Shown in pieces: positions 1,186 through 59,955 of a stretch of 64,000 nt of DNA (position 1 is the first letter of the stretch; each line of letters opens with the position of its first letter). The notes under the pieces are model-generated. The model was not told where the DNA came from, ran no database searches, and saw only the letters and a list, made by a program, of their open reading frames with translations. A program made the translations under genes and the position numbers. Source of the stretch: a virus; IMG/VR virus record IMGVR_UViG_3300005663_001084, positions 24,929-88,928 of that record; one strand, 5' to 3'.

Positions 1186-1230
1186 GTTATCGGGACGGAG
1201 GGGCTATTCGGGCAGGTAAATTTACACGGC
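1186..1230 (-). promoter_or_regulatory. class-1 conserved promoter, minus-strand copy
   Basis: The reverse complement reads taCCTGCCcGAATAGCCccTCCgtcCCGATAACatgggtATG. This matches the window-wide consensus. Confidence 0.6.
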
Positions 1231-1737
1231 GGCTTTTCTACCTCGCTTTCGCTTGGCCTTGATACGGTCGATGGCGTCGAAAACGATCCGAAGCTCATCG
1301 AGGTGCTTCCAGCGTTCGCGCCACTGCTCGGCCTCCTGCAACGCAATTGCCAACAGGTTCGCGCGCCGATCCGCGTCGCTGAGGATCTCCACGGTGGGAA
1401 AGTACGCCCCGCCCTGGGACGTGGGATTCTCCGTGTAGAACGCGCGCACGACTGTGGGCTCCTGCTTCCCCATGGGCTTGCGGTAGATCGTGACTTCGAT
1501 GTTCCGGATGAGGAGCCGCGCCTGCTCCAAGCGATGATCGTTGGCTGCGCTATGATTATCCCAAGTGAAGAAACTGTGCATCGGACTCTTCTTCGCGTGT
1601 GCTCGTCGCAGAACCTCCTCGGGGAGAATCCCGCCCTCGTCTTTCCGGATGGTTTCGAGTTCCTGACCGATGTCGTTGGCCAGCGCTTTCTGTACCTTCG
1701 TGTACCGAGATCCCTTTTTGAAATTGTACTTCGCCAT
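1222..1737 (-). CDS. hypothetical protein
   Basis: ORF 1222..1794. The internal start MAKYNFKK is preceded by GGAGG 6 nt upstream. Confidence 0.55.
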   Translation of the reverse strand: MAKYNFKKGSRYTKVQKALANDIGQELETIRKDEGGILPEEVLRRAHAKKSPMHSFFTWDNHSAANDHRLEQARLLIRNIEVTIYRKPMGKQEPTVVRAFYTENPTSQGGAYFPTVEILSDADRRANLLAIALQEAEQWRERWKHLDELRIVFDAIDRIKAKRKRGRKAAV

Positions 1738-1802
1738 GATGACCTCCAGGAAAAAGTTGGAGGGAGGACCCCTCCATGGAGCCCTCCCTCGCAACCAAGA
1801 AA

Positions 1803-2123
1803 CTACCCAGCCGCAGCGCTGTGCGACTTACGTGTCTTGCCGCCGCTGGCGACCTGGAAGCCGCCCCACGTGCCGCCCTTCTCCGTACGCCATTCGCCGA
1901 GGCCGACGGAGATACCCGCTTCCGCCAGCAAGTTCACGATGGTCGTCTCGTCGATACGATCCGCGTTGAACAGGATCGACACATTGGTCTTCCATCCCGC
2001 AGGGAACTCCCCTCGGTAGCGAAGATCCATTGGACGTGCCGGGCCTACCGATCCATGCCTAACTGCCACTTCTGTCAAACCAACCCTCAACGCTGGAGAC
2101 ACAGCGCTGCCTACCCAACCCAA
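1803..2123 (-). CDS. hypothetical protein
   Basis: ORF in the same orientation as its neighbours; no recognisable motif. Confidence 0.3.
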   Translation of the reverse strand: MGWVGSAVSPALRVGLTEVAVRHGSVGPARPMDLRYRGEFPAGWKTNVSILFNADRIDETTIVNLLAEAGISVGLGEWRTEKGGTWGGFQVASGGKTRKSHSAAAG

Positions 2124-2130
2124 ATTCAGA

Positions 2131-2622
2131 TCATTCCCCTTCCGGCGGAATAATGGCGGCTATCAACATCTCTCCAAGTTTTGGCCAGTACTCCTTAAAT
2201 TTGGAGCCGCCTTTGATATACGTTATCCTGTAGCCACTATCCTCAGCCGAGTTCGTAGGCCCATTTTTAATGGCGACCCACCCATGCGCCTCCCAGCACT
2301 TCAACACCTCGACACGCTGCAAAGTTCGCAACTCAAACTCCGCCACGGCCAACTGATTGTGGCTGAAGTAGCAGTCGTTATCTTCGCGCCACAGGCAAGT
2401 TCGTTTGATGACGTCCAGGATGACGTTCTCTCTCAGCATTCCAACCAAGAGAGGCATTGCCATAAGACTGGTCAGGATATCGATCTGCTGCTGCTTGTCT
2501 GTTGTGAATTTGTGCTCCGCCAAGATATCCAACACAGCGCGAGTCAGACTCAACGCAGCGAGCCGACGCGTAGAGCCGCTGTTCAGAGGGACCTTGGTAA
2601 CCGTGATACTGTCTCTACCCAT
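2131..2622 (-). CDS. hypothetical protein; paralog of 9076..9558
   Basis: Start MGRDSITV lies directly after a class-1-like promoter. The C-terminal half aligns with 9076..9558: CWEAHGWV and YWESKGWV, and YWPKLGEML and YWPKLLEML. Confidence 0.6.
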   Translation of the reverse strand: MGRDSITVTKVPLNSGSTRRLAALSLTRAVLDILAEHKFTTDKQQQIDILTSLMAMPLLVGMLRENVILDVIKRTCLWREDNDCYFSHNQLAVAEFELRTLQRVEVLKCWEAHGWVAIKNGPTNSAEDSGYRITYIKGGSKFKEYWPKLGEMLIAAIIPPEGE

Positions 2623-2665
2623 AATAATATCATCGGATTGGCCGAGCATCCTGCTCAGACCAAAT
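2623..2665 (-). promoter_or_regulatory. class-1-like leaderless promoter
   Basis: The reverse complement reads ggCCAATCCGATGATattattATG. The -10 and spacer are conserved; the upstream part has diverged. Confidence 0.5.
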
Positions 2666-2699
2666 CCGAAAAATATTTGGAGACCGCTGAATTTTAGGA

Positions 2700-3092
2700 T
2701 CAGCGCAACCTGCGCCCGGTGCCGCCACGGTCCAGTTCTCCCCAGGGGAAGTACCAGATCTCGAAGTCGTCCGGGAGGTGCTCCGCCAGCCGCTTCGCGA
2801 CGTGATTTGCCTTCCGGGCGGCCATACGCTGCTCGAAAGCCCACGGCGTGAGGCTGGCCATGCGCTTCGTAACGTCGATGCGCCCGGCAAACTGCGGGGG
2901 TCCTTCCATGCCAACGTCGAGGTGGTAGGTGTCCGGATCGACACCTTCCTGGCTGGCGAAGCTGAACTGACCATCTGACCACTTCCAGGCGTCGAAGTCC
3001 TTGGAGCCGCTGCGGTAGTGGCCGATGTCGGTGTAGTGCTGAGGAGCGGCCTCGCAGAGCAGCTTACGGATGACTTGGCGGGTGGAGTCCAT
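2700..3092 (-). CDS. L-family protein 1; shares its C-terminal domain with 3092..4057
   Basis: N-terminus MDSTRQVIRKLLCEAA. ATGA-coupled to the upstream gene. Confidence 0.7.
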   Translation of the reverse strand: MDSTRQVIRKLLCEAAPQHYTDIGHYRSGSKDFDAWKWSDGQFSFASQEGVDPDTYHLDVGMEGPPQFAGRIDVTKRMASLTPWAFEQRMAARKANHVAKRLAEHLPDDFEIWYFPWGELDRGGTGRRLR

Positions 3093-5414: not shown

Positions 5415-5480
5415 GGCAGGTCTCCTGGTAGGTGGCAGATAGTATACCCGACCACCGGACAGGAGGCCAACAGTCAGATA

Positions 5481-9075: not shown

Positions 9076-9558
9076 TCACGCAATGGCAGGAAGCGTGACA
9101 GCGCGGAGCATCTCCAGGAGTTTGGGCCAATACTCCTCAACTGGAGATCCATCTTCGATGTACCGCATGCAGTACACGAAATCCTCTTCGGAGCGTTTGG
9201 CATGCAACTCGACCCAACCCTTCGACTCCCAGTACTTTAGAACCTCAATACGCTGCAAATACACCAACTCTGTGTGCAGCGCTTCCAACCGGCTTTGAGT
9301 GAAGTGGTGGCTATCCACAGTACTCAGCAGGCAGTTCCGGTCAACGACTTCCAGAATGGTCTCCAGGCTGAGCGTACCGACCAGGGCAGGTAGCTTCTTC
9401 AGCTTGTTCATAATCTCCAAGACCTGCTCATCGCGTACCGAGAAATCCCAGTCTTCCAGGATTCCCTGCACTGCGGTTCCCAGACTAGCTGCGGCCGTAA
9501 GCCGGTAGGCCTCCTCACAACGGGGCATCAGAATCCTGTCGTCATCTGGTCTGCTCAT
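9076..9558 (-). CDS. hypothetical protein; paralog of 2131..2622
   Basis: The ATG sits 6 nt after the GATAAT of a class-1 promoter. Shares the YWPKLLEML block with its paralog. Confidence 0.6.
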   Translation of the reverse strand: MSRPDDDRILMPRCEEAYRLTAAASLGTAVQGILEDWDFSVRDEQVLEIMNKLKKLPALVGTLSLETILEVVDRNCLLSTVDSHHFTQSRLEALHTELVYLQRIEVLKYWESKGWVELHAKRSEEDFVYCMRYIEDGSPVEEYWPKLLEMLRAVTLPAIA

Positions 9559-9605
9559 AACAGTATTATCGGATCGGGGCGGCTATTTAGCCAAGGAAAA
9601 TTATC
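9559..9605 (-). promoter_or_regulatory. class-1 conserved leaderless promoter
   Basis: The reverse complement reads aattttccTTGGCTAAATAGCCgcCCcGATCCGATAATactgttATG. Confidence 0.65.
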
Positions 9606-11514
9606 CGGCAGCGTTTAACCGCTCAACCGCCTTGGAGAACGCAAGAACACGTAAGTAGGTAGTGTCTCTCACTTTTCCTGAAATCGCCTCGATGATCTTT
9701 TTTGCAGTACACTCGGCGATCCTGGCCCCTCTGGACAGTTCCTTCACAGAGTATCCCGCACACAGCGAGCGCATCACATGCGTGTCGACGAACACGGGAA
9801 GGTCCTCCCAGTGCCGGAGGCATACCTGCATCAGCATCCGCTTAAACAAATCCTTTTCCACACTGACCTGGGCACGCGCTATGCCGGAGACAAGCGCGCT
9901 GCCCTTCCGAGCCCTAGGTTGCCGTGGGCGATTTACCTTCGGACGCTTGACCACGCGAGTCCTCGCCTCTTTCAAGGCCTCGGCCGCTTGCGTGATCTGA
10001 TCAGCCCAGTGCTGCCGAACCCGACGGCCGGGCTTGTCCAAGTCGTAGAGGTACTCGTAAATGGTGTACCGTTTCATCCCGGTCACTTCCGCTACAACGC
10101 TGGCGGCCATCCCTCGAATCAGTGGCGCAATCTCCGAGAGCAGCACCGACCGTATAGGATTACAACGCAGTTGTACTTCCCGAGCCACCTTCGCTGCACA
10201 AGCACCCACGCAGTACCGGGACCGCCAGTTGAGCGGGAGGTCCGCCTTGCAGACGCAACACGCACGATAAGCCAGGGGCAGGTCTGGGCGAACGGTACCA
10301 AAAGCTGCCTGACTCACACGAACAATTCCCACGCTGACCTCGGCCACAACCTTTTGCTGCGTCTGCCCGGCGGCGTAGCGTTCGCGGATATCGCGGATGA
10401 GATCGTCATCGTCGAACCAATCCGGCTTTGGCTCTCGCAGCAACGCCTGTAACCGATACCGCTCCTTCTGCTTGGCTTCTACGAATTTCTCCAAACATTT
10501 CGTAGAACAATAAACCCAGCGACTGGGCGGCAAAGGAGACTTCCCACACTGCTTACATACGGTGCCAACCTGACTTTCCTTCCGCTCCTTCTTTAGCTCC
10601 CTCGACCGCCGAACCCCAGCGACCGCGCGCACCTGGGCGTGTCCCGCCGCGACACACTCACCCGTACAGTACTTGATGTACTTTCTTGGTCTTCCGAATC
10701 GGACGTAGAAGCGGTTGCATTTCGCACACCGTGGAGCGACCCGACCGCGACGCGTTCGCTGCTTCTTGCTTGGTGTAACCGGTTTATTGCCTATGAGGAA
10801 GTTTGCCGCATCTGCCTGCATTCCGTCGTAAGCGACGTCCAGCGCGGCTTTGCGAAGACGCACGCGCATAGCCTTCTGCCCACAGCCCCTACGCTGCGTC
10901 GAGCTTGGGCAGAACAGGGGCAGCTTGCCACCCTTCGGCGGTCGGCGAGCTTTGAATGTTTTTTCACAGTGCGCACAGACGATACTGATTGCACGAAGCG
11001 GGATCAGGGGAAGGTGCTTGTACGTCTTTCCAACCGCGACAGCGTATACCGATGCCGAGCAGACATCGAACTCCTCGGCCAGGGAATAGGATGTCTGACC
11101 ATCCGCCCAACGATCCCGGACTTCCATTACCTCGGCGTCGCTAAACAGTCCTCTACTGCCCCGACGACTCCGCCCTCTCGGGATAGTCCTTGCCCGGACG
11201 TCGTTTTCTATGGCACGCGCCTTACGGATTGCATACTTGGACGCGGCCTCACCGATCTGAGGGTACAGCGCCCGGTAGCTCCGCTTCTTAACGACGTCTT
11301 TGCAGGCGTCGTCACAGTACTGCTGATTGTAATTCTCGGCGTAAAAAGGCCCCTCGCAGGCGTTACACTCTCGGGCAGTGTCCCAGGCCCAGGTCTTACC
11401 CCGCAAAATATTACCGACGCAGGACTTATCTACGCTGTACGTCTTCGCAATACGTGCCCGGCTCCACCCCTGCCGGGCGCGCTTCCGAATCAGATCCGCC
11501 CGGCGGCGAGTCAT
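9601..11514 (-). CDS. multi-domain DNA-binding protein with four to five tandem HTH plus zinc-ribbon modules
   Basis: Repeated HTH-like segments: RARQGWSRARIAKTYSV, RDRWADGQTSYSLAEEF, RERYAAGQTQQKVVAEV. Each is followed by Cxx C...YC(S/T)xxC zinc ribbons. The start is taken at the internal Met MTRRRADL. Confidence 0.6.
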   Translation of the reverse strand: MTRRRADLIRKRARQGWSRARIAKTYSVDKSCVGNILRGKTWAWDTARECNACEGPFYAENYNQQYCDDACKDVVKKRSYRALYPQIGEAASKYAIRKARAIENDVRARTIPRGRSRRGSRGLFSDAEVMEVRDRWADGQTSYSLAEEFDVCSASVYAVAVGKTYKHLPLIPLRAISIVCAHCEKTFKARRPPKGGKLPLFCPSSTQRRGCGQKAMRVRLRKAALDVAYDGMQADAANFLIGNKPVTPSKKQRTRRGRVAPRCAKCNRFYVRFGRPRKYIKYCTGECVAAGHAQVRAVAGVRRSRELKKERKESQVGTVCKQCGKSPLPPSRWVYCSTKCLEKFVEAKQKERYRLQALLREPKPDWFDDDDLIRDIRERYAAGQTQQKVVAEVSVGIVRVSQAAFGTVRPDLPLAYRACCVCKADLPLNWRSRYCVGACAAKVAREVQLRCNPIRSVLLSEIAPLIRGMAASVVAEVTGMKRYTIYEYLYDLDKPGRRVRQHWADQITQAAEALKEARTRVVKRPKVNRPRQPRARKGSALVSGIARAQVSVEKDLFKRMLMQVCLRHWEDLPVFVDTHVMRSLCAGYSVKELSRGARIAECTAKKIIEAISGKVRDTTYLRVLAFSKAVERLNAAG

Positions 11515-12152
11515 CTTTTGCGTTTTTTGCTTGCCTTGGTGCGCAATAGCTGTTGGATCTTCTTGATCACGGTGCCCCGAGTGACGCGGTACCGCGTTCC
11601 GGTCGACATAATGGCCCATACGACGCCCTTGTCATCCAGTTCCGCGTCCGCGACGAACGGGACGGTCTTGCGGGTCCGGTTGAGCGGCAGCTTCGGCCTA
11701 GTGAACCCGAGCGCATCCGACAGAGGACGCGGGTCGGCGATCTCCAGGGCTTTGTCGATGGCCTTGTCGATCTTGACCCGGGTGATGCCGCCCTGGTTCT
11801 GCTTGACCCGCAGCATGTTCAGGTAGCTCGCACCGATCCCGCGCATCATGGCCACCTTGAGCGACTTGTCGGGCAGGTTCCCCCGGCCGACTTCGAGCAT
11901 CACCTTGAGGTGCTCCAGGCTGCGGAACAGGACGCCGTGCTCGACGAGGCAGCGGTCCGTGAACTTGACGAACTCCTCGGGGGGCAGCTTATCAGACACT
12001 TCGACCATGATGTACGAGACCTCCAGAAGGAAGTCGGACTCGGCCTCCCCGTACTGGTCGATGATGCGCATCGCGGCGGCTGCGGACTTGACTGCGCGGA
12101 TCTCCTTCATCGTGGTGTAGGACAGCTTGCGGCGCGTTTTAACTTTGGGCAC
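11511..12152 (-). CDS. hypothetical protein
   Basis: ORF; basic C-terminal tail KKRKR. Confidence 0.5.
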   Translation of the reverse strand: MPKVKTRRKLSYTTMKEIRAVKSAAAAMRIIDQYGEAESDFLLEVSYIMVEVSDKLPPEEFVKFTDRCLVEHGVLFRSLEHLKVMLEVGRGNLPDKSLKVAMMRGIGASYLNMLRVKQNQGGITRVKIDKAIDKALEIADPRPLSDALGFTRPKLPLNRTRKTVPFVADAELDDKGVVWAIMSTGTRYRVTRGTVIKKIQQLLRTKASKKRKR

Positions 12153-12585
12153 GGTGCTTCTCCTTGTGTGGAGGTAACATTTTGTACGTAGATTCCATCA
12201 GGTCCACCTCGACCAGCTTCGCCAGTTCGTCCGGTAGGGCCATGATGCTCGTGATGATGTCAAAGTGGTCGGTGACGCCTTCTGCGGTGATGCCATCAGA
12301 CATGCCGTCCGCGATCCAGTCCATCAGGATCAGGAAGTCCGTCAGATCGTAGGCAAACCCACTGTCTGCGTGTCGACGCTCCCAATAGCGATCCAGGTAC
12401 TTCTCGGCGCGGACAACTGCCCCAGCATCGCACAGGGAGGGGTACGCATCGCAGTGCTGAACGGTCATCTGCTCGACGGTGGCCGTCAGCCACTGCTTGA
12501 TCTCGTAGCCAGTGCAGATATCAGCGATCTGGGGTACTTCGGCGTCCATACCTGTATCATCGGGGTGGCCGGAATCGAAGCTCAT
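12139..12585 (-). CDS. hypothetical acidic protein
   Basis: ORF directly downstream of a class-1 promoter. Confidence 0.5.
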   Translation of the reverse strand: MSFDSGHPDDTGMDAEVPQIADICTGYEIKQWLTATVEQMTVQHCDAYPSLCDAGAVVRAEKYLDRYWERRHADSGFAYDLTDFLILMDWIADGMSDGITAEGVTDHFDIITSIMALPDELAKLVEVDLMESTYKMLPPHKEKHRAQS

Positions 12586-12640
12586 AATAGTACTATCGGA
12601 TTCGGACAGCTATTTGGTCAGGTAATTTTGTGGGTCAAGC
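12586..12640 (-). promoter_or_regulatory. class-1 conserved leaderless promoter
   Basis: The reverse complement reads cacaaaattacCTGACCAAATAGCtgTCCgaATCCGATAGTactattATG. Confidence 0.65.
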
Positions 12641-45727: not shown

Positions 45728-45729
45728 TT

Positions 45730-45775: not shown

Positions 45776-45840
45776 GTATAAGCCCGGCAGTGGCATCCCG
45801 ATGTGGGGCGACCTACTGCTTGGCACGGTACGGTGCGGTG

Positions 45841-46850: not shown

Positions 46851-46852
46851 TC

Positions 46853-48002: not shown

Positions 48003-48004
48003 CT

Positions 48005-48823
48005 ATGTCACGCGACTGGAAGAACACAGGACTCTACCAGGAGTTCAACCAGGACGATGCGGACACCCGCGTCGAACGGTTCATTGAGGCCGCCGCCAAG
48101 CTGACCGTCGAGTTCCTGGAGGACCAGGATGCCTTCTGGCATTGGGACGGCCACAAGCACGTGGCGGAGTTGACCAGCGGCAAGCTGAGCAACTTCTTCG
48201 CCAACTGCACGCCGATCTTCACACACCCCGGCATCCAGAAGGACATCGCACACGCACTGTGCGAGAAGCTGGTGCGCAGCGTGTACGTCGGGATGGATAA
48301 GTTCCTGGGGAAGCCCGCAGGATACCACGGTCAGCCACGTATACTCACCGACGATAGGCTGTTCAAGACGCACCCTAACCGCTGGGTCGTCGGCTCCGCC
48401 ATGGGCAGCATCGGCCTCGCGCAGTCCATCGCCTCGGTCCTGGGCCAGGGCTGGAAGGCCGCATTCGCCGACAAAGGTGGCGACGGCATGGAACTCAAGC
48501 GGTTCGACCTGGGGGAAGCGCCCATGGTCCTGCTCTGCGAGGATGTGTTCACAACCGGTGGGACCATCAAGTCGACGATCATGGCCGTCGAGAAGAAGCA
48601 CGAGGACGTTCTCTTCGTGCCCGAGGTCCCGACCATCATCAACCGCAACCCGGGCTACTCCTTCCAGGTCAAGCAGGGTGGACCCGGCTTCCACTTCCCG
48701 GCGCTCATCACCAAGGTCGCTGAAACCTGGGACGATGTCACCAGCCTGCCCGAGCGCATGAAAGGCTGCGTCCCGATCCGGCCGAAAGTAGGATGGAAAA
48801 AACTAACAACCGCGATGTTATAG
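48005..48823 (+). CDS. type-I phosphoribosyltransferase, putative orotate PRTase, with a roughly 100-aa N-terminal extension
   Basis: PRPP-binding motif VLLCEDVFTTGGTIKS. Adjacent to pyrF. Confidence 0.6.
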   Translation: MSRDWKNTGLYQEFNQDDADTRVERFIEAAAKLTVEFLEDQDAFWHWDGHKHVAELTSGKLSNFFANCTPIFTHPGIQKDIAHALCEKLVRSVYVGMDKFLGKPAGYHGQPRILTDDRLFKTHPNRWVVGSAMGSIGLAQSIASVLGQGWKAAFADKGGDGMELKRFDLGEAPMVLLCEDVFTTGGTIKSTIMAVEKKHEDVLFVPEVPTIINRNPGYSFQVKQGGPGFHFPALITKVAETWDDVTSLPERMKGCVPIRPKVGWKKLTTAML

Positions 48824-48832
48824 GGGTTTGGA

Positions 48833-49351
48833 ATGGCAGAAAACACGTACCGTTGCTCCGTATGTGAACGAGACTTGCCGGAGTCAAGTTTCCATAAGCA
48901 ATCCAGAAAAGCAGGCAAAGCAGTTCGGCGTCGTCCTGTGGGCTACAAGTGCAGGACATGCCGGACGGAGTACAGAAAGCGGTGGTACCGGAATGGCGGA
49001 AATGCCAGTGTCAAAAGCACGAATCAGCGGCAAAGGTTGACTAATCCAAAGATCAGAATGCTGCATGCCGCGCGGAAGAGAGCGAAAAAGTTGGGACTGC
49101 CGTGCTCTCTGAGCAAGGAAGACTTCGAGATCCCGAAGATCTGCCCTGTTTTAGGTATCCATCTTGAGATTACTCTCGGAGGGATTACCACAAACACACC
49201 GACCATGGATCGGGTAGATAACTCAAAGGGGTATGTTCCTGGAAACGTCCAGGTCATCTCTTGGAGAGCAAACATGATTAAGCGGGACGCAACTATCCCT
49301 GAGTTGGAAGCGATTATTCGGTACATGCGGAAATTCTCCCCGGCTGCATAA
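48833..49351 (+). CDS. HNH homing endonuclease, lower-GC gene
   Basis: Motif MDRVDNSKGYVPGNVQVISWRANMIK. N-terminal CSVCER...CRTCRTEY. Confidence 0.7.
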   Translation: MAENTYRCSVCERDLPESSFHKQSRKAGKAVRRRPVGYKCRTCRTEYRKRWYRNGGNASVKSTNQRQRLTNPKIRMLHAARKRAKKLGLPCSLSKEDFEIPKICPVLGIHLEITLGGITTNTPTMDRVDNSKGYVPGNVQVISWRANMIKRDATIPELEAIIRYMRKFSPAA

Positions 49352-49387
49352 CTGGCGAGCGCTGGCCGACGAGAAGCTGGAGAAGTA

Positions 49388-49600
49388 GTGGGCAGCGAGA
49401 CGCTACCTTACGAGTGTTGGGCGATCATGTCTACGAACGAGAGCCCACGTGTCGTGCGGATCAACGGCCAGTTGGCAGTGTACGACAACCAGCCCGCCGC
49501 GTTGTTTAAGCTGGGTGACATCCTAGAGGCCAACCCAGGCAAGCAACACGCATACGCAGTCAGGCCTGCCACCGTCACCCTGGAGTTTCGAGATGAGTAA
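49388..49600 (+). CDS. hypothetical protein
   Basis: GTG start. Confidence 0.35.
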   Translation: MGSETLPYECWAIMSTNESPRVVRINGQLAVYDNQPAALFKLGDILEANPGKQHAYAVRPATVTLEFRDE

Positions 49601-49973
49601 AAAGTTCGAGCGCGCACGCGTCCGGGTCAAGGGGAACTACGACACGGGAGGCAGGCTGGGCTGGCAAATCGGACCCGAGATCTATGCTGAGCAGTGGTGG
49701 ATTCCTGTGCTCTGGGACGACGACGAAGATCCAGATTGCTTCAAGAAGGTTGGGCTCAACTTCCTGGATCACGGCCAGGAGCAGCGCGAACTCCGACAGA
49801 ACATCCTCGACATAGTCACCGACCTCGTGTCTAAGTTCATGTACTACAACCGAGAAGAAGAAGATGACACGCTCTCAGTCGAACGCCTGGAGCAGGCTTT
49901 CAAAGATGGCGTGATCACCCACGAAGAGGTGGCCGCCCACTTCCTGAAGGAACTGAAGGGCAAGAATGGATGA
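49593..49973 (+). CDS. hypothetical protein
   Basis: ORF. Confidence 0.45.
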   Translation: MSKKFERARVRVKGNYDTGGRLGWQIGPEIYAEQWWIPVLWDDDEDPDCFKKVGLNFLDHGQEQRELRQNILDIVTDLVSKFMYYNREEEDDTLSVERLEQAFKDGVITHEEVAAHFLKELKGKNG

Positions 49974-50361
49974 CATCCCACCACCACTACCACCACCATC
50001 ACCACTAACACGCGCTGATGTCGCCGCCGAAGTCGCTGAGTCCTTCAAGGACTACTACGACGAAGAGGATCGTGGCAAGCTGGAGGTGGCCAGCGTCGAG
50101 GGCATCGACCAGTACGTCCGCAGTCTGAACCTGTACTTCGTCATGGGCGAAATGGACGCAGACAGCGGCGGTCGTGGCTGGATTGCAGAGATCTGGGTCG
50201 ACGAAGCCAAGGCCGAGGAGCGTGCTACGTACATCGAAAAACGCGGTAAGCCTATCTACAAGTACCCGACCTTCTTCAGCGTCCAGGAAATCAACCTTGG
50301 CGAGGAGTTAGAGATCCACAACGAGGACAGAGACCCCCTGCCTCCGCAGCAGCTACCCTGA
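49966..50361 (+). CDS. hypothetical protein
   Basis: ORF with N-terminal Pro-rich repeat PPPLPPPSPL. Confidence 0.45.
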   Translation: MDDIPPPLPPPSPLTRADVAAEVAESFKDYYDEEDRGKLEVASVEGIDQYVRSLNLYFVMGEMDADSGGRGWIAEIWVDEAKAEERATYIEKRGKPIYKYPTFFSVQEINLGEELEIHNEDRDPLPPQQLP

Positions 50362-50371
50362 GGATCGCATA

Positions 50372-50563
50372 GTGCACCTGTATATGCTCTACTGCCTGAC
50401 GACGCACCGCGCCTTCCTGTGGCACTCGCCCAAGCGGGACGACACTGCGGCCGTCGCGAAGGCCAAGACGTTGCTGGTCAAGGGTGGGCACGGAAAGCTG
50501 TACAAAGGGCCGACCGGCGTGGACGAGATGGATTTCCTGGAGAACGTCTATGGCCCGCTATAA
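50372..50563 (+). CDS. hypothetical protein
   Basis: GTG start. Confidence 0.35.
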   Translation: MHLYMLYCLTTHRAFLWHSPKRDDTAAVAKAKTLLVKGGHGKLYKGPTGVDEMDFLENVYGPL

Positions 50564-50885
50564 CGATCTGCTTAACGAGCGCCCTCTCCCTGAGATGAAG
50601 TACCGCTGCTGGTTCCGTAAGGAAGATCCCAGAAAAAGGGGAGAAGTAGTCGAGGCAACCAATATCGAGGCTGCTGCCAAGATATTCGCTGAAGAGTGGG
50701 GCGATTGGGAGGAGGGTGTCTTCGACATCCTGGTCAATCCCGTGCGCACCGGTAAGATCTACAATGTCAAAGTCTCAGTGTGGCTGGAGCTAAACACTGA
50801 GACGGACAAGGTCACGCTGACCCGCATCAAGCTGGAAGGCCGCGAGAAGCCGAAGCGAAGGCCGCGCAAGAAGAAGAAGAAGTGA
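50550..50885 (+). CDS. hypothetical basic protein
   Basis: Internal start MARYNDLLNER. C-terminal tail KRRPRKKKKK. Confidence 0.45.
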   Translation: MARYNDLLNERPLPEMKYRCWFRKEDPRKRGEVVEATNIEAAAKIFAEEWGDWEEGVFDILVNPVRTGKIYNVKVSVWLELNTETDKVTLTRIKLEGREKPKRRPRKKKKK

Positions 50886-51094
50886 CCTGGGGATCTCCCA
50901 GGTCGACCTGCGCCCCCGGCCATCGGCGCATTGAGGTGTGTACCAAAATGGCAGCAGACCAAAATGATGCTGACAAAGACGTTATAAAGTTTTCCCCAAT
51001 CCTTGAACACGGTTATCCCCATGATGAGTTACGCGACCTAGCAGAGTTCCGGCAGAAAGTGCTGGCCAGCCTTATGATCAAGCCGTGGCAGATT

Positions 51095-51136
51095 TTTCCT
51101 GACCGATTTAGTCCTCCCAATCCGATAATACATAGT
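51095..51136 (+). promoter_or_regulatory. class-1 conserved promoter inside track ORF 50882..51355
   Basis: tttcCTGACCGAtTTAGtCCtCCcaATCCGATAATAcatagtATG. It sits in a roughly 240-bp AT-rich stretch. Confidence 0.55.
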
Positions 51137-51355: not shown

Positions 51356-51653
51356 CGAGAAGCAGGCCTTTGGTATACTCGGCCGGACGGGCCAGTTCGA
51401 TGGACCGTGGAATTGGTACAGGTTCGACTATGCCGAGGACAAGTTAGTGGTCTCGGCAGAGCCCGTATTCCCGTGGAACACCGTGCACATGGCTCAGCAG
51501 GAAGCGATGAAGTTGATGAAGCAGGAGCCGGACCTCTGGACGACCCAGGTCGTGATCCAGCCCGATGGCTGGGGTCCGAACCTGCCGTACGAGAACAACA
51601 CAACCACCGGGGAGCACCTCGGCTTTGCTCCCTCAGCAGGAGGTAACTGGTAA
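51348..51653 (+). CDS. hypothetical protein
   Basis: Internal start MSDEKQAFGIL. Confidence 0.45.
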   Translation: MSDEKQAFGILGRTGQFDGPWNWYRFDYAEDKLVVSAEPVFPWNTVHMAQQEAMKLMKQEPDLWTTQVVIQPDGWGPNLPYENNTTTGEHLGFAPSAGGNW

Positions 51654-53739: not shown

Positions 53740-53782
53740 GCCAGAATCCTAGCATAGCGCCGATCTCTCAGCAAATCCCCAG

Positions 53783-53825
53783 TTTTCACCTAGCCAAATA
53801 GCCTTCCCAATCCGATAACATAGTT
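53783..53825 (+). promoter_or_regulatory. class-1 conserved promoter
   Basis: ttttcaCCTAGCCAAATAGCCtTCCcaATCCGATAACAtagttATG. The ATG opens only a 14-codon ORF before the real gene at 53903. Confidence 0.6.
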
Positions 53826-53902: not shown

Positions 53903-54382
53903 ATGAGTGACAAGAGTGTTGTCGCGTTTGATCCCGATGCCCTCAAGAAGGCGATCCGTGGCCGCGTCCAAGCCGCCTTCGTCGACATGATCCCGGACGA
54001 GGCCTGGGACAAGATGGTCAGCGGGGAGATCGACAGCTTCTTCAAGGAACCGCAGAAAGTCGTCACGGCGGAGGAGAAGCGCCACAGCCGGAATCAGTCC
54101 TGGCAGAGCGACCAGTACGAAATCTCCCGCGTCGAGATGACGCCTTTCCGGCAGGTCGTCTACGATCAACTTCGGCCGCTCGTCATCGCCGAAATCGTGA
54201 AACGCATCAATTCCGCCAATTTCGAGTCTGTGTGGTTTAACGAAGGCGAGCACCGGCTCGGACCCTTTTTTGAAAAGATCCTCCGGGACTGTGTACCCGA
54301 AATGGTGGCTCTCATGTTCAAGGGCGTTTTCGCCCGTGCAGCCGGTGCCACGATGGAGAGCCTCAGGAACCAGCAGTTCTAA
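53903..54382 (+). CDS. hypothetical protein
   Basis: GGAG lies 8 nt upstream. Confidence 0.5.
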   Translation: MSDKSVVAFDPDALKKAIRGRVQAAFVDMIPDEAWDKMVSGEIDSFFKEPQKVVTAEEKRHSRNQSWQSDQYEISRVEMTPFRQVVYDQLRPLVIAEIVKRINSANFESVWFNEGEHRLGPFFEKILRDCVPEMVALMFKGVFARAAGATMESLRNQQF

Positions 54383-54959: not shown

Positions 54960-55383
54960 ACCCAGCGACGAGTTCTGGGCAGCCTTCCGTTGCGGCGGAA
55001 GCCTCGTCATCCTGTGCGAGCACTGCGGACGGACACACTTCTGTACCACTTCCGGGGCTGTCGACTACAACGAAGGTGAACTGGAAGAGCTACTGGAGAA
55101 GGCCAAGAAAGACCCCGACATGTACCGTGAAGACGGCACGTACAGCAGCATCGAGTGGGGATACATCGGCGGGAAGCAGTCTGTCATGCACTGCCCCTGC
55201 AACGAAGAGAAGATCGCTCCCTACGAACAGTTCATCATCGTCCACGCCGAACAGATCCTGGAGTATCTCCAGAGCCGAGCTAATAAAAAACTCAGGAGTT
55301 CTCAGAGCCTCATGGACAAGGTCAACGAGACACTTAACGCCACAGAGGAAGCAGACAATGCGAGTAACCGTAGCCCCGAATGA
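54949..55383 (+). CDS. zinc-binding protein
   Basis: CEHCGRTHFC...HCPC. Confidence 0.45.
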   Translation: MMRKPSDEFWAAFRCGGSLVILCEHCGRTHFCTTSGAVDYNEGELEELLEKAKKDPDMYREDGTYSSIEWGYIGGKQSVMHCPCNEEKIAPYEQFIIVHAEQILEYLQSRANKKLRSSQSLMDKVNETLNATEEADNASNRSPE

Positions 55384-56566
55384 ACCGCCCGAGTCCTGGA
55401 CCTCATCGGTTTTCCTCGCCGGTCCCACGCCACGCAAAGAGGGCGACACCCGCTGGCGTGACAAAGCTATCGCGGAGTTCAAGAAGAGAGGCTTCGACGG
55501 TGTGATCCTCGACCCCGAGCGTGAGGACTGGCCCGAAGACAAAGAGGGCTACGAAGAGCAGATCCACTGGGAGCAGGAGATGCGCGAGCGGTGCGACGTA
55601 ATCCTGTTCTTCGTCCCGCGCCACATGGAACTGGCCCCCGGACTGACGACCAACATCGAGTTCGGCCAGGACCTATCAGGCTGGAAGGTCGTCTACGGCA
55701 GGCCCAACGACGCGGTCAAGATGGACTACATGGATCTCATCTACAAGCAGCGCTACAAGGTGGTCCACGAGACGTCCATCGAGGCCACGGTCCAGGCCGC
55801 CATGGACATGATCGAGACGCTCACGGAGAAGATCCACGACGTCGAGGCGGAGACGAGTGCGCTGCGTGAGGACGGCGAGACCTATGTGCCTCTTCACATC
55901 TGGTCGTCTCCCCAGTTCCAGTCCTGGTACAAGGCTCAGCTTGCCGTGGGCAACCGTCTTGACGCCGCCCGCGTGGAGTACGCGTTCGTGATGCCCAAGG
56001 CAGGGCTGCTGTTCATGTTCGTACTGTGGGTCAAGGTCTGGATCGAGGCAGAGCAGCGGCACAAGGAGAACGAGTTCATCGTCAGCCGCACCGACATCTC
56101 CACCATCGTGGCGTACAAGAAGGCGCTGTCCGGATCGCTGGCCGACACTGAACTGGTCCTGGTCCAGGAGTTCCGCAGCCCGGTCCGTAACAGCAGCGGC
56201 TTCGTCTACGAGTTGCCCGGTGGGTCAAGCATCAAGCCTGGGCAGGACCCGCTACAGATCGCGGCCGAAGAACTCCACGAGGAAACCGGCATCAAGATCG
56301 ACGACCCGAAGCGGTTCGTTCAGGTCATGCCGAAGCAGCTTGTCGCCACCATGCTCACGCACCAAGCCCACGTCTTCGCCATCGAACTGACCGAGGAGGA
56401 GATGGCTGTCGCGCGGGCCAAGGACGCGGCCGACGAGACCCACGGTCTGGAAGAGGACTCGGAGAAGACCTACGTCCGGGTCACGACGTTCGGTGAGCTT
56501 CCCGACCGCGATGTCGACTGGTCGACCATCGGGATGATCACCACGGCCCTACGCCAGGAACTCTGA
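55358..56566 (+). CDS. fusion of nucleoside 2-deoxyribosyltransferase-like (DNPH1/NDT fold) and Nudix hydrolase
   Basis: N-terminal SVFLAGPTP...CDVILFFVP...TNIEFG. C-terminal Nudix-like box GGSSIKPGQDPLQIAAEELHEETG. The start was moved from the over-extended track ORF 55076. Confidence 0.5.
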   Translation: MRVTVAPNEPPESWTSSVFLAGPTPRKEGDTRWRDKAIAEFKKRGFDGVILDPEREDWPEDKEGYEEQIHWEQEMRERCDVILFFVPRHMELAPGLTTNIEFGQDLSGWKVVYGRPNDAVKMDYMDLIYKQRYKVVHETSIEATVQAAMDMIETLTEKIHDVEAETSALREDGETYVPLHIWSSPQFQSWYKAQLAVGNRLDAARVEYAFVMPKAGLLFMFVLWVKVWIEAEQRHKENEFIVSRTDISTIVAYKKALSGSLADTELVLVQEFRSPVRNSSGFVYELPGGSSIKPGQDPLQIAAEELHEETGIKIDDPKRFVQVMPKQLVATMLTHQAHVFAIELTEEEMAVARAKDAADETHGLEEDSEKTYVRVTTFGELPDRDVDWSTIGMITTALRQEL

Positions 56567-56567
56567 C

Positions 56568-56864
56568 ATGCCTCCAGCGATTATGATGTCTTACGACCGT
56601 GTGCAGGTCTTCCGGTTTGGCGACGGCACTGATTGGGTTGCTACGCGTGACGTCGACGAGGCCATCAAGTGGTACTGTGCCGAGAACGGGTTCGAGGATG
56701 CCGACGATGCCGGATTCGATCCGAATCCCGTCTGCCTGATGACCGAGCACTACATCGAAGGGAACAACCCTGAAGCAGGTCGGGAGACCTTCCTCGACTG
56801 CATCAAGATACGCATTAAGAATGGCTGGGAGTTCCCGGCCGTCATCAGCAGCGAGAACTCCTGA
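56568..56864 (+). CDS. hypothetical protein
   Basis: ORF. Confidence 0.45.
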   Translation: MPPAIMMSYDRVQVFRFGDGTDWVATRDVDEAIKWYCAENGFEDADDAGFDPNPVCLMTEHYIEGNNPEAGRETFLDCIKIRIKNGWEFPAVISSENS

Positions 56865-56865
56865 T

Positions 56866-57687
56866 ATGAATGATGATTACCATGGTCCTCCGCCAGGAGT
56901 TACAGCCATGAATTTCGACACCGAGCTTGTGCAGTGCATGGTCGACCGCATCTGCGATTTTCACAGGGGCCAGACCCGTAAGGCCCTGCCGATCCCGTAC
57001 ACCTTTCATCTCTTCGACGTGGCCAAGACGCTGGTCAACTGGGGCATCGAAGATGCCGACGTCATTGCCGCTGGTCTGGGGCACGACCTGATCGAGGACA
57101 CCAAGGACAGTCACCCCAGCCTGATCGCACAATTCGGCACACGTATCGCCGGGATGATCGACGAACTGACTTGGGTCAAGGAGGACGGCACCAGTCGGAC
57201 GGCCAAGGTCAAGCACTGGAAGCAGTTCGCCGAGCACTCCACCATCCAGGCCCTGGTCATCAAGGCGGCCGACCGCTACTGCAACGTCCGGGACTACGCC
57301 CGGCAGCGCAGTCGGGACAACGAGTACGAAGGCGAGTACGCGGCCCGGTATGCCTGCTATCTGTACCCGGTGTGGCGGGCGATCTACACTCGGCAGGACG
57401 AGGTCTCTCGGGTCTTCGGAGACAGGGCGCAGCGGCTCATGGACCCGGACATCCGGTGGATCATCCGCCTCATCCGCTGCGACGTGAAGATTTGCCTGGA
57501 CGTCATCAACTCCAGGACGGTCCTCATCGACGGCGCTCTGGACATCGGGCTGGGCAAGGAACTTTGCGACGCTCAGGCTGATCTGGAGAGGCTGAACCAC
57601 GAGCGCTCCAAGAACGAGAAGGAGATCCAGGCAGCCGAATTGAGGCTCCATAAGCTGAATAGGCGGGCCTCCGATGAGCCTGAGTGA
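56866..57687 (+). CDS. HD-domain phosphohydrolase of the SpoT/Mesh1 small-alarmone-hydrolase type
   Basis: FHRGQTRKALPIPYTFHLFDVAKTL...AAGLGHDLIEDT matches the RelA/SpoT HD signature. The alternative start ATG 56908 has an AGGAG ribosome-binding site. Confidence 0.65.
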   Translation: MNDDYHGPPPGVTAMNFDTELVQCMVDRICDFHRGQTRKALPIPYTFHLFDVAKTLVNWGIEDADVIAAGLGHDLIEDTKDSHPSLIAQFGTRIAGMIDELTWVKEDGTSRTAKVKHWKQFAEHSTIQALVIKAADRYCNVRDYARQRSRDNEYEGEYAARYACYLYPVWRAIYTRQDEVSRVFGDRAQRLMDPDIRWIIRLIRCDVKICLDVINSRTVLIDGALDIGLGKELCDAQADLERLNHERSKNEKEIQAAELRLHKLNRRASDEPE

Positions 57688-58166: not shown

Positions 58167-58513
58167 GCACCGCCATGCAGAAGCTGAAGGAGGAGCTTGC
58201 CACGGCCGACGCCAAGGTCGATCAGATCTCAGGTGAGCTTACGAAAGCTGTCGAAATCAGGAACTCAGTCCTCGACCGCATGTTCGAGACTGACACAGGC
58301 TTCCGCATCGGGGGCGACGCTATCCAGACGCTGTCGTATGGAAGTAGGCCTCCGCGCCGTGTGAAAATCTTGCGCCTGACTAATCGCGATTGGAGCAACG
58401 GCAAAAACTGGTGGTGCGCAGTTCAAATTTACAAGAAAGACGGGACGCTTGGAAAGAACGAGGCCCGGGTATTCAGCGCCAAGGACGAACTCGCACAGGT
58501 TGACAAGGAATAG
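58163..58513 (+). CDS. hypothetical protein
   Basis: ORF, ATGA-coupled. Confidence 0.45.
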   Translation: MSTAMQKLKEELATADAKVDQISGELTKAVEIRNSVLDRMFETDTGFRIGGDAIQTLSYGSRPPRRVKILRLTNRDWSNGKNWWCAVQIYKKDGTLGKNEARVFSAKDELAQVDKE

Positions 58514-58515
58514 CT

Positions 58516-58788
58516 ATGCCTCATGGCGAGAAGACGCGAATCGGCATCGAGATCTTCAACGCTTTTGACCTGACCCGAGGTCGAGTCGAGGAAGACTTCG
58601 AGCCCGAAGCACTGGCGTACAGAGAGTGGCCGAGCGTCCCCATCAAGGGCGACCGGATCTACCTTAGCGAGACAGACAAAACGTACGAGGTCCTGTGGCG
58701 AACCTGGAGTTCCTTGGTAGACGGCAAGGCTGTGGTGATCACGACCGGAGCGTACGTCACACTCGCAGTGCAGGAGGTAGACCACTGA
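58516..58788 (+). CDS. hypothetical protein
   Basis: ORF. Confidence 0.45.
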   Translation: MPHGEKTRIGIEIFNAFDLTRGRVEEDFEPEALAYREWPSVPIKGDRIYLSETDKTYEVLWRTWSSLVDGKAVVITTGAYVTLAVQEVDH

Positions 58789-59426
58789 TGGCCAAAGTCA
58801 CCAAAGCTCAGCGTGCCAAGGTCGCGAAGGCCCTGAATAAACTGCTGGCCGAGCGCCGGATCTCTGACGGCGGCTACGCTCCGGCCACCGAACAGGACAT
58901 CGATCAAATCCACGTCCTGTTCTGCACGATCATCGAAGCCAAGTGGGGAAGCGATCCTGATGGCGATCTGCCTGTCGAATACAAGTTGATCAACCGCCAC
59001 ACAGAAGAGCGACTTCACTACTACCCGATCCCGTACGGCCACCGGCTCAAGGACTTCGAGGCGATGCGGAATCGGGTAAGCCTGCTGATGGCCAACTTGG
59101 ACATGGCTCAGGAAGCTGTGAGCAAAATGATGCGTGGCTTCATGGACTACGACATGCCTCGGATAGGCCTCACGTACCGGAACTGGTACATGGGAGGTGC
59201 CGCGCCGCACCAACGCGGCCACTACTGGGCCGCAAGCTCGAAGCTATTCAAGGGACGTCAGGTTGTCGAAGTTACGCACGGACAACCAACCGGTCGAGGC
59301 TTGGTCGTCCGGTTGCCGGGACAGGATGAACAGATTTCGCTGGACGAGATCAAGCTCTGGGGTCCCCAAGTCCTGAATTTCGACAGTGGACCGCTACCTT
59401 GGGGAGATTCCAACGATGAAAAATAA
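58788..59426 (+). CDS. hypothetical protein
   Basis: Internal start MAKVTKAQRAK overlapping the previous stop. Confidence 0.5.
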   Translation: MAKVTKAQRAKVAKALNKLLAERRISDGGYAPATEQDIDQIHVLFCTIIEAKWGSDPDGDLPVEYKLINRHTEERLHYYPIPYGHRLKDFEAMRNRVSLLMANLDMAQEAVSKMMRGFMDYDMPRIGLTYRNWYMGGAAPHQRGHYWAASSKLFKGRQVVEVTHGQPTGRGLVVRLPGQDEQISLDEIKLWGPQVLNFDSGPLPWGDSNDEK

Positions 59427-59637
59427 GTTCTTGCCTACTCTGATGGTCTGGGTAGTGGGCTACGCACTCGGTGCCGCGTCCGTAGGGTGCATTGTAGGTA
59501 TTGTCCACGTGGTCTATAATCCTCCTGATCCGGGCGAAGCGCCCCTCGGTATGCCGATAGCAGGCCTCGGGCTGTTCACCCTTGCTTTCATCCTCGGCAT
59601 CATCCTAACGACGATGTACGATACGGAGAAGAAATGA
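59416..59637 (+). CDS. membrane protein (2 transmembrane segments)
   Basis: MKNKFLPTLMVWVVGYALGAASVGCIVGIV...GLGLFTLAFILGIIL. Confidence 0.45.
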   Translation: MKNKFLPTLMVWVVGYALGAASVGCIVGIVHVVYNPPDPGEAPLGMPIAGLGLFTLAFILGIILTTMYDTEKK

Positions 59638-59906
59638 CCAACGAACACAAAGATGGGTGGAAACCCTCGCTCACATCGAAGTGTGCTGTCTGCAACGAGC
59701 GCCGGGCCGAGATCAACCTGAATAGCGTCACCGGGCACACCGGACAGTACTACGACATGTCTCCCGAGGCCATGTCGCAGACCCTGCGGTTCTGCAAGAA
59801 CAGTACCAAGTGCCGCGAGGTCGCGGGCGCGATGGTCCGCCTGAAGATGCCGTACGACCACCCAGAATGCTGGCGAGCGGAGCAAAAGAAGCTCGACGGC
59901 AGATGA
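59634..59906 (+). CDS. Cys-rich protein
   Basis: CAVCNERR...FCKNSTKC...HPECW. Confidence 0.45.
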   Translation: MTNEHKDGWKPSLTSKCAVCNERRAEINLNSVTGHTGQYYDMSPEAMSQTLRFCKNSTKCREVAGAMVRLKMPYDHPECWRAEQKKLDGR

Positions 59907-59910
59907 TTCT

Positions 59911-59955
59911 GTAAAATTTCCTTGCGTAAATACCCCTTCCGATCCGATAACATTG
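59911..59955 (+). promoter_or_regulatory. class-1 promoter variant
   Basis: aaatttcCTTGCGTAAATAcCCcTtCCgATCCGATAACAttgg. An AGGAGG ribosome-binding site follows. Confidence 0.5.

Follow-up and report, generated by a model that had tools for sequence, protein, structure and literature searches.

Described promoter classes and the class I element

The closest described counterparts of the element reported here are the early promoters of T4-type phages and the promoter-early stem-loop (PeSL) cassettes of T4-like phages (PMC2988021, PMC2839356, PMC4122927). The element is a 45-bp motif, present in 17 copies in a 64-kb stretch of DNA (positions 24,929 to 88,928 of IMG/VR record IMGVR_UViG_3300005663_001084, hereafter the window), which is a non-structural region of an uncultured jumbo phage with a contig of at least 225 kb. 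The 17 copies very probably form one class of promoters, here called class I, and are numbered with the A of the downstream ATG as +1. As with T4 early promoters and PeSL cassettes, which occur by the dozen in T4-type phages, the copies are many and near-identical, their upstream part is A/T-rich, their consensus extends beyond the hexamers, and they are concentrated in regions of small ORFans. Like PeSL cassettes, they also contain the breakpoints of indels and replacements between close relatives, at four junctions in the present case. Unlike T4 early promoters, the hexamers are not those of the host consensus (G at -12, weak -35), and unlike PeSL cassettes, which end in a Shine-Dalgarno sequence, 12 of the 17 copies abut the start codon. 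A conserved stem-loop is also missing, since a hairpin is found at only two of the 17 copies. Thus the PeSL combination of a promoter with a conserved stem-loop terminator is absent here, and the plastic, ORFan-adjacent location with breakpoints inside the cassette is present.

Phage promoter classes that depend on phage-encoded or appropriated sigma factors include the T4 late promoters, read through gp55 and marked by TATAAATA, and those of SPO1, which use gp28 and gp33/34. Class I resembles these and the T4 middle promoters in having a class-specific motif beside host-type promoters and a conserved box between -35 and -10, and it has, like TATAAATA, an extended -10 that reaches -6. The sequence of every element differs from those of T4 middle, T4 late and SPO1 promoters. 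In T4 middle promoters, the MotA box has the sequence (a/t)(a/t)(a/t)TGCTTtA, its centre at -30 and a distance of 12 +/- 1 bp to the -10 (PMC2988021), whereas the AAATAGCC box of class I stands 10 bp from it. A Pfam scan of about 130 genes of the window, which left out the genes between ~29.6 and ~34.8 kb, gave no family matches to MotA or AsiA, and the MotA box itself was not found. The candidate factor described below also differs from gp55 and MotA/AsiA, as it combines a sigma domain 2-like part, a domain 4-like part and a beta-barrel.

The sigma28 -10 element is (-15)GCCGATAA(-8), and sigma28 does not read -7 (PMC12784957). Class I has tCCGATAA at -15 to -8 in the same register, although the copies of its relative have GGCGATAAT instead, and the sigma28 -35 element (TCTAAAG / TAAAGTTT) is absent, as -36 to -30 reads cTGnccA. 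Promoters of extracytoplasmic function (ECF) sigma factors are exemplified by TGAAAC-N16-CGTA. The TGaCCA-N16-CGAT geometry of class I is similar, and the candidate factor has its best structural matches among ECF sigmas, but class I lacks the AAC core of the ECF -35. The spacers of ECF and sigma28 promoters are not conserved in sequence, unlike that of class I. We take both resemblances as leads and not as memberships.

The early promoters of phiKZ and AR9, served by virion RNA polymerases, share with class I the jumbo phage setting, the high conservation of the motif and a start, presumed in class I, that is fixed 6 nt downstream (PMC5312081). The AR9 early consensus is AAATATATATTAT-(6N)-G+1, with leaders of 26-491 nt (PMC5312081). 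Those motifs differ in being only ~13-20 bp long and A+T-rich, in lacking a -35, and in requiring phage polymerase genes, none of which was found in the window. Leaderless transcripts are a further point of comparison. They are known from lambda cI, from the middle and late genes of Thermus phage phiYS40, from mycobacteriophages and from the Mycobacterium and Deinococcus transcriptomes. In the 12 abutting copies of class I, as in these systems, the -10 is followed after 6-8 nt by an ATG or GTG, which would be the first transcribed triplet, and the internal genes keep their Shine-Dalgarno sequences. The difference is that the design is tied here to a stereotyped 45-bp cassette repeated 17 times; in the same window it also occurs in a second promoter type (GGTATACT followed by 7 nt and ATG or GTG).

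Anatomy and placement of the 17 copies

An iterated 45-bp weight matrix run over the window returned exactly 17 sites of 29.5-57.0 bits and zero sites in the gap of 12-29 bits, and the top score in 20 first-order Markov shuffles with preserved dinucleotide frequencies was 10.6 bits. The 24-bp core AAATAGCCNTCCNNATCCGATAAT, with up to three mismatches, was matched 13 times versus 0.00 expected. The preliminary description had reported at least 17 copies on both strands; the matrix recovers nine on the plus and eight on the minus strand, at positions within a few bases of those reported, and this list is complete. Each copy is named after the position of the 3' end of its -10 hexamer, for minus-strand copies the lowest plus-strand coordinate. 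The copies are as follows.

1180-1230, minus strand: P1186, 42.9 bits; GATAAC, 6 nt, then the ATG at 1179 of the predicted leaderless gene 886-1179
2623-2673, minus strand: P2629, 29.5 bits, the most divergent copy; GATGAT, 6 nt, then the ATG at 2622 of gene 2131-2622
9559-9609, minus strand: P9565, 53.4 bits; ACTGTT, then the ATG at 9558 of gene 9076-9558
12586-12636, minus strand: P12592, 52.0 bits; ATG at 12585, 6 nt past the -10, of gene 12139-12585
14365-14415, minus strand: P14371, 54.2 bits; ATG at 14364 of gene 14146-14364
15327-15377, minus strand: P15333, 38.4 bits; 6 nt, then the GTG at 15326 of the GNAT acetyltransferase gene 14838-15326 (Pfam)
16993-17043, minus strand: P16999, 48.5 bits, of the AAATTGCC / GGCCGATAAT subtype; ATG at 16992 of gene 16462-16992
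20920-20970, plus strand: P20964, 52.3 bits; ATG at 20971 of gene 20971-21969
31621-31671, minus strand: P31627, 41.4 bits; ATG at 31620; heads an operon of ~8 kb down to ~23154
31648-31698, plus strand: P31692, 56.6 bits; ATG at 31699; divergent partner of P31627
34768-34818, plus strand: P34812, 54.0 bits; leader of ~38 nt with GGAGA; genes 34857-37140
37177-37227, plus strand: P37221, 47.1 bits; short leader with GGAGA; ATG at 37240
45727-45777, plus strand: P45771, 57.0 bits; leader with no obvious ribosome-binding site; heads the block 45790-50885
51085-51135, plus strand: P51129, 42.5 bits; ATG at 51137, 7 nt past the -10
53775-53825, plus strand: P53819, 50.5 bits; the ATG at 53826 opens an open reading frame (ORF) of only 14 codons
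57700-57750, plus strand: P57744, 41.4 bits; leader of ~8 nt, no ribosome-binding site; ATG at 57759
59907-59957, plus strand: P59951, 54.3 bits; leader with AGGAGG; ATG at 59971

The motif spans about -44 to +3, with zero information content beyond. It begins with an A/T tract (aAAATTt, -44 to -39) in which T-40 is kept in 16 copies, followed by a -35 region (-36 to -31) that reads cTGncc, with T in 15 of the 17, G in 13 and the other positions weak. The AAATAGCC box lies at -30 to -23, each of its positions being kept in 13-15 copies; T-21 and C-19 are among the conserved bases of the spacer, and the ATCCGATAAT block occupies -16 to -7. C-14, C-13, A-11, T-10 and A-6 are invariant, G-12 is found in 16 copies, and T-1 and A+1 in 14 each. 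Together with A-11, T-7 is normally the most constrained base of a -10 element; it is present in 13 copies and replaced by C in four. The spacer between -35 and -10 is 18 bp long and had been described as conserved almost base for base. This holds for 14 of its 18 positions (identical in at least 13 copies), compared with two of six in the -35 hexamer, but not for -22, -20, -18 and -17, which vary. Although GATAAT, with A-11 and T-10 in all copies and T-7 in most, is a proper sigma-70-type -10, the free spacer sequence of housekeeping promoters is not seen. A weak -35, a G in place of T at -12, and a score of 9 of 12 matches reached by only four copies in a generic sigma-70 scan give little support to the proposed principal-sigma promoter. 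The block from -30 to -13 has neither dyad nor direct-repeat symmetry. The motif matched zero Rfam families, folding of the motif with its upstream DNA gave no conserved hairpin (the two copies with any are P37221, upstream, and P2629, internally), and terminator-like sites were not enriched.

All 17 copies are intergenic or abut a gene start, and all are co-oriented with the genes downstream. Each change to the plus strand has a copy, as has the start of most blocks on the minus strand, which amounts to roughly one copy in 3.5 kb. The copies head nearly all ORFan and metabolic operons of the window, including those of nicotinamide adenine dinucleotide (NAD) salvage, the pyrimidine genes and the GNAT enzyme. 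The view of the repeats as a promoter family is thus well borne out by their fixed geometry to start codons, strict orientation and sharp boundaries, by the lack of RNA structure or an Rfam match, and by the unrelated genes downstream. An origin of the repeat in gene duplication was ruled out, since the genes behind the 17 copies include only one paralogous pair (2131-2622 and 9076-9558, 40% amino-acid identity).

The start codon lies exactly 6 nt past the -10 in 11 copies (10 ATG and one GTG) and 7 nt past it in one; the preliminary description had given at least ten copies with this spacing. Eleven of these 12 start codons open real genes and one opens the 14-codon ORF, and a Shine-Dalgarno sequence precedes none of them, versus 75 of 130 genes overall. 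This is the arrangement of leaderless mRNAs as far as sequence can tell, and the 11 or 12 abutting copies quite likely make such mRNAs. The remaining five copies have leaders of ~8-40 nt. They had been described as having a short leader with GGAGG; a GGAG-type site is present in three (P34812, P37221 and P59951), but P45771 and P57744 have no visible ribosome-binding site. As the distance to the start codon varies in the leadered copies, the motif is better understood as a promoter than as a translation signal. The start-codon assignments are supported by two orthologues in L009, a contig of the relative described below, which start at codons equivalent to the predicted leaderless starts of gene 886-1179 and of the GNAT gene (15326). 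Both orthologues are internal, translationally coupled and led by ribosome-binding sites, and that of 886-1179 is promoterless.

Several copies have features of their own. In P2629, a palindrome with 15-bp arms replaces the -35/spacer region and pairs it with the -10-proximal part (TCGGATTTGGTCTGAGC...GCTCGGCCAATCCGA; hairpin dG -21.6, z -5.4), and this is the sole copy that resembles a PeSL-type promoter with stem-loop. A terminator-like hairpin (z -2.2) lies immediately upstream of P37221. P31627 and P31692 stand back to back in a 72-bp intergenic region (31621-31698), where a quasi-palindromic A/T tract (AGAATTTCT) is common to both and lies between their -35 regions. P34812 drives the genes of a nicotinamide mononucleotide (NMN) adenylyltransferase/Nudix protein and of NAMPT, and the block behind P45771 includes pyrF, all assigned by Pfam. 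The 14-codon ORF behind P53819 (53826-53870, plus strand) reads MEPLLQDQFTESRH and may be a leader peptide or functionless; the first real gene after this copy, 53903-54382, has a ribosome-binding site. The P31627 operon contains small local families of paralogous, coiled-coil-like ORFans:

28034-30186, minus strand: first family of coiled-coil-like ORFans
24100-24681 and 25434-25799: second family
26706-27197 and 27572-27880: third family

Candidate reader, related contigs and other promoters

The preliminary description had called for a search for a phage sigma factor, and a candidate was found by its predicted fold. It is a previously unannotated protein of 329 aa whose gene has a canonical promoter of its own, detected by scan and alignment:

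19177-20166, minus strand: sigma-like protein of 329 aa (LCGC14_0163710), candidate reader of the motif
20207-20235, minus strand: canonical promoter TTGACG-N17-TATGGT upstream of the gene of the 329-aa protein

This promoter is followed by a leader of ~40 nt with AGGAGA and is kept in four related contigs. The AlphaFold model of the protein, built on an alignment of 19 sequences, has a predicted local distance difference test (pLDDT) score of 78 and contains folds of sigma domain 2 and sigma domain 4 and a beta-barrel domain; an earlier model based on only eight sequences reached pLDDT 48. In the fold comparison, sigma factors, FliA, WhiG and T4 gp55 among them, made up most of the top 50 matches. 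At the sequence level, the protein had zero matches in Pfam, PHROG or the PDB, and Sigma70_r2 matches were sub-threshold in four of the 19 family members (best E 0.0098), short of the Pfam gathering score. The family is small, with 17 representatives among 1.84 billion proteins. Judging from the model, the protein may bind the core polymerase and read one of the promoter classes. Two unusually long non-coding regions, 17762-18426 (665 bp) and 20107-20629 (523 bp), flank the sigma-like and HNH genes. They contain the inverted repeats GGATAGAAAGG / CCTTTCTATCC and canonical TTGACA-type promoters, are conserved in relatives (L009 937-1541 and 3349-4060, L066 and L067), match zero Rfam families, and may serve in control or as an origin, or encode a non-coding RNA.

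The motif is confined to one clade, comprising this phage and one close relative that is represented by contigs of one other sample (SRR24204710), L009 and L068 among them. In this relative, the only one that carries the motif, six copies were found together with the sigma-like gene, whose protein is ~77-78% identical to that of the window; NAMPT is 87% identical. A search of IMG/VR did not find the motif, and the 54 loci that matched CGATAATACTGTTRTG in a further scan of IMG/VR are all attributable to chance. Metagenome and genome contigs gave three matches each, single, in DNA of 30-45% G+C and with the flanking motif missing, which were also regarded as chance. The motif was not found in contigs whose NAMPT is 63-74% identical, and no analogous motif was seen around the gp334-like gene of LR745208.

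P20964, P16999, P34812 and P37221 have orthologues in the relative that keep copy-specific features (ACCTGT, GATGAT-ATGGGTGGAGA), and the P34812 orthologue in L068 keeps both copy and leader (55.3 bits). Taking window and relative together, two subtypes occur side by side, AAATAGCC...ATCCGATAAT and AAATTGCC...GGCGATAAT. Some of the copies in the relative have an added upstream module, CACAAAATTTTnGGCCGTTTCAAATTTC, which precedes class II promoters (see below) in the window, and the positional orthologue of P14371 in L009 (+5877) has an additional module of ~21 bp upstream. Homology between the window and L009/L068 breaks at four promoter copies. P16999 is a promoter-only island of 49 nt, 87.8% identical to L009 4019-4067, with unrelated flanks; the P20964 orthologue in L009 (-943) keeps ACCTGT and drives an unrelated gene; gene 886-1179 is preceded by a promoter in the window and by a gene in L009; and a two-gene indel directly follows the P37221 orthologue in L068. 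Purifying selection on the orthologous copies could not be demonstrated, since four-fold degenerate sites are already 78% identical, compared with 82% for the promoter cores. A repeated element, GGTACGGA(A)GACAA..., was also noticed between genes of L068 (3340-3360, 4340-4360, 4405-4425 and 4490-4506); a similar sequence, GTACGGAGACAACCAAG, lies at 38540-38566 of the window right before the ATG at 38567 and may be a conserved translation-initiation region.

Other promoters of the window are of more canonical types. TTGACA-N17-TATAAG precedes the HNH gene (18372), and a -10 of the GGTATACT type occurs four times versus 0.38 expected. GGTATACT appears to mark a second promoter type (class II), which, like TTGAC-N17/18-TAnnnT, is more canonical than class I. 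The promoters assigned to the second type are as follows.

5441-5470, minus strand: second-type promoter
14781-14833, minus strand: second-type promoter, an GGTATACT copy
16401-16453, minus strand: second-type promoter, a related TATGAT promoter
23106-23134, minus strand: second-type promoter
51372-51379, plus strand: second-type promoter
45697-45726, minus strand: TTGACT-N18-TAAGAT, heading the 39672-45688 operon

The copies at 14781 and 16401 share a 28-bp element, CACAAAATTTTnGnCCGTTTCAATTTCG, upstream of the -10. The first base of the -10 is T in all other promoter types versus G, preceded by CC, in class I. In three cases an ATG or GTG lies 7-9 nt downstream of a second-type -10, and leaderless starts are therefore a trait of the phage-host system and not of class I alone.

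These promoters are associated with a distinct group of genes. Seventeen otherwise unrelated minus-strand proteins begin with MD(x)TRxAIRxxLTEA (MDxTR proteins), and two large proteins have an internal copy of it, near 42202 and 44237.

3092, 4057, 4431, 4907, 14773, 15867, 16391 and 22709, minus strand: gene starts of MDxTR proteins
23098, 40103, 41095, 41718, 43399, 45230, 45688 and 63663, minus strand: further gene starts of MDxTR proteins

The adjacent large proteins 41723-43399 and 43404-45230 (minus strand) have a C-terminal domain of ~150 aa in common (50% identity), and 43404-45230 has a weak ParB_N match. The GGTATACT-type and TTGACT-N18-TAAGAT promoters drive operons of MDxTR proteins, and every MDxTR gene with visible context is downstream of a non-class-I promoter. 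An MDxTR protein directly follows four of five non-class-I operon heads versus none of the 17 class I copies (Fisher's exact p ~0.0007). The capsid-targeting sequence of T4 is cut off by the prohead protease at L/I-x-E. The internal proteins of T4 are diverse and have only this N-terminal sequence in common (PMC3012670). By analogy, the MDxTR N-terminus resembles a signal for capsid targeting or a propeptide, with an L-x-E site of the prohead-protease type at its end, which would suggest that many proteins are packaged and injected. If MDxTR proteins are virion proteins, then class I is a pre-late class, and on this analogy it is probably an early or middle one.

The 329-aa protein and a 548-aa ORFan are 100% identical to proteins of one contig of 224,854 bp. 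The NCBI title of the former is 'hypothetical protein LCGC14_0163710 [marine sediment metagenome]', the metagenome presumably being that of the Loki's Castle gravity core. At the DNA level, a megablast comparison of 20 kb with 50,697 phage records found zero matches, and the best protein matches (39-48% identity) were to RsoM2USA, Xanthomonas jumbo phages, Bacillus phage G and uncultured phages of the LR7xxxxx series. Nothing here points to the suggested actinobacterial host: the best matches are uncultured phages and jumbo or huge phages that infect Proteobacteria or Bacillus. Most genes downstream of class I lack a Pfam match. The few matches in the window include a truncated GDP-mannose dehydratase, GNAT, an HNH/NUMOD4 endonuclease, a T4 Y13H-like protein, the NMN adenylyltransferase/Nudix protein and NAMPT (together NAD salvage), orotidine monophosphate (OMP) decarboxylase, a deoxyribosyltransferase-Nudix fusion that shares 39% identity with gp334 of Bacillus phage G, and an HD_4 domain of a kind known from ppGpp hydrolases. 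No tRNA genes or Rfam families were found in scans of the window.

34857-37140, 47328-48823 and 55358-57687, plus strand: metabolic gene set
9601-11619, minus strand: basic protein of 672 aa in the P12592 operon, with many CxxC pairs and weak similarity to the helix-turn-helix (HTH) family HTH_7
1790-1760 and 37166-37200: hairpin-plus-T terminators

The 672-aa protein had no tblastn match in the phage collection and, from its sequence, is possibly a multi-site DNA-binding protein.

Competing explanations and biological meaning

We infer the transcription start, the timing and the identity of the reading factor from the sequence, and the mechanism proposed on this basis would be as follows. Class I would be one class of phage promoters read by bacterial multisubunit RNA polymerase, in which the element at -16 to -6 (ATCCGATAATA) would make transcription begin at the A of the ATG, which lies 7 nt past GATAAT. 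From a start on this base it would follow that twelve copies give leaderless mRNAs and the other five leadered ones, three with a ribosome-binding site. Recognition would go through a dedicated phage-encoded specificity factor, possibly the sigma-like protein, and the promoter copies would act as, or coincide with, junctions for cassette swaps between related phages. A dedicated factor is the most likely kind of reader because conservation peaks at positions that a housekeeping sigma does not read base-specifically, namely the AAATAGCC box at -30 to -23, C-14, C-13, G-12 and A-6. The idea of a phage-specific recognition element, raised in the preliminary description, has gained weight from this conservation outside the hexamers, from the coexisting canonical promoters and from the encoded sigma-like protein. 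We consider it somewhat more probable than the opposite that the motif needs a phage-encoded specificity factor; that this factor is the 329-aa protein is a tentative and rather doubtful identification. The explanation as a whole, bacterial polymerase with a dedicated phage factor, stands at about even chances. A fuller scheme, in which a divergent two-domain phage sigma with an inserted beta-barrel is made from a host-type promoter and redirects the host core enzyme to class I, most pre-late mRNAs are leaderless and independent of Shine-Dalgarno sequences, and the cassettes act as homology linkers in the exchange of ORFans among related huge phages, is speculative and on balance improbable.

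Several points weigh against this explanation. The -35 TG and the 5-of-6 -10 at the right spacing are acceptable, and the host primary sigma could suffice. The 329-aa protein might just as well act on the GGTATACT class, or on neither class, and the DNA beyond the window may encode further sigma factors, activators or an RNA polymerase. The reading of MDxTR proteins as packaged in the virion, and hence late, comes by analogy from T4 capsid targeting. The window and the relative are too close to show purifying selection across genomes, and the CC at -14/-13 is lost in the GGCGATAAT subtype of the relative, which weakens a strict extended -10.

Among the alternatives, strong early promoters used by the host primary-sigma holoenzyme alone, with the extra conservation due to polymerase tuning or cassette copying, are the most serious, and we consider them possible though not probable. 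The TG at -35/-34, the 18-bp spacer and GATAAT with its constant A-11 all suit such an enzyme, the A/T tract at -44 to -39 sits where the proximal UP subsite does, T4 early promoters are likewise conserved beyond the sigma-70 elements (PMC2988021), and the copies precede ORFan and metabolic genes as early promoters do. What is hard to reconcile with the host sigma alone is the G in place of T at -12 in 16 copies and the C in place of T-7 in four, a -35 poorer than that of the canonical promoters in the same window, a spacer of 18 and not 17 bp, the failure of 13 copies to reach 9 of 12 matches, and a spacer more conserved than the -35 hexamer. An overlapping operator at -30 to -13, comparable to stoperators or phiC31 repressor sites and bound by a phage repressor or activator that switches the whole class, would explain why conservation peaks between the hexamers. 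The box at -30 to -23 stands 10 bp from the -10, in a way reminiscent of the T4 MotA box (PMC2988021), and several Cys-rich or HTH-like proteins are encoded nearby, the 672-aa protein among them. We still consider an operator unlikely, as the block lacks dyad and direct-repeat symmetry and homologues of repressors, like those of MotA and AsiA, were not detected among the scanned proteins of the window; it would in any case be compatible with a dedicated factor and not exclusive of it.

Recognition by a phage RNA polymerase, either single-subunit (T7-like) or multisubunit (phiKZ/AR9-like), is very unlikely in our view. Such polymerases use long and almost invariant promoters and start at a set distance of a few nucleotides downstream. 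The long, highly conserved motif that ends 6 nt before the presumed start does match the layout of the AR9 early consensus, and the genome is of jumbo size, but no polymerase gene was found in the 64 kb of this contig, the bipartite -35/-10 layout with G+C-rich blocks differs from the short A+T-rich motifs of phage polymerases, and the sigma-like protein implies that the core enzyme of the host is used. Slightly less credible still is that the repeat is a recombination or cassette-junction sequence (an integron attC-like site or a PeSL-like linker) or an archaeal promoter with B-recognition element (BRE) and TATA box. The homology breakpoints at four copies would suit a recombination site, yet a constant gap of 6 nt to the start codon and strict co-orientation are to be expected of a promoter, and no recombinase is associated. 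In favour of an archaeal promoter, AAATAG at -30 to -25 occupies the expected TATA position and the sediment is rich in archaea. Gene content, terminators and a poor match to BRE and TATA box led us to reject the archaeal reading: the sequence upstream of the 'TATA' is not purine-rich as a BRE is, AAATAGCC is a poor TATA box, and the sigma-like protein, the ribosome-binding sites, the terminators, the HD_4 domain and the matches to bacterial jumbo phages are bacterial traits.

Phages are already known to have class-specific, highly stereotyped promoters, sigma factors of their own, leaderless mRNAs, and promoter cassettes at mosaic junctions. New are this motif, its consistent fusion to the start codon in an uncultured phage of huge size, and the divergent protein of sigma-like fold encoded nearby. 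Transcriptional annotation of huge phages known only from metagenomes is almost nil; in the window, at least ten gene starts change, operon boundaries are gained, and a class-specific promoter reveals a probable temporal split of the phage genome. With breakpoints at its promoter copies, this phage takes the PeSL concept, in which promoters serve as linkers for recombination, past the T4-like group. If it is the sigma-like protein that recognises the motif, the two would make a compact orthogonal sigma/promoter set, testable in vitro without phage culture. The systematic leaderless design would limit the possible hosts to lineages with efficient translation of leaderless mRNAs, and the phage would show how a whole natural programme can be based on such translation.

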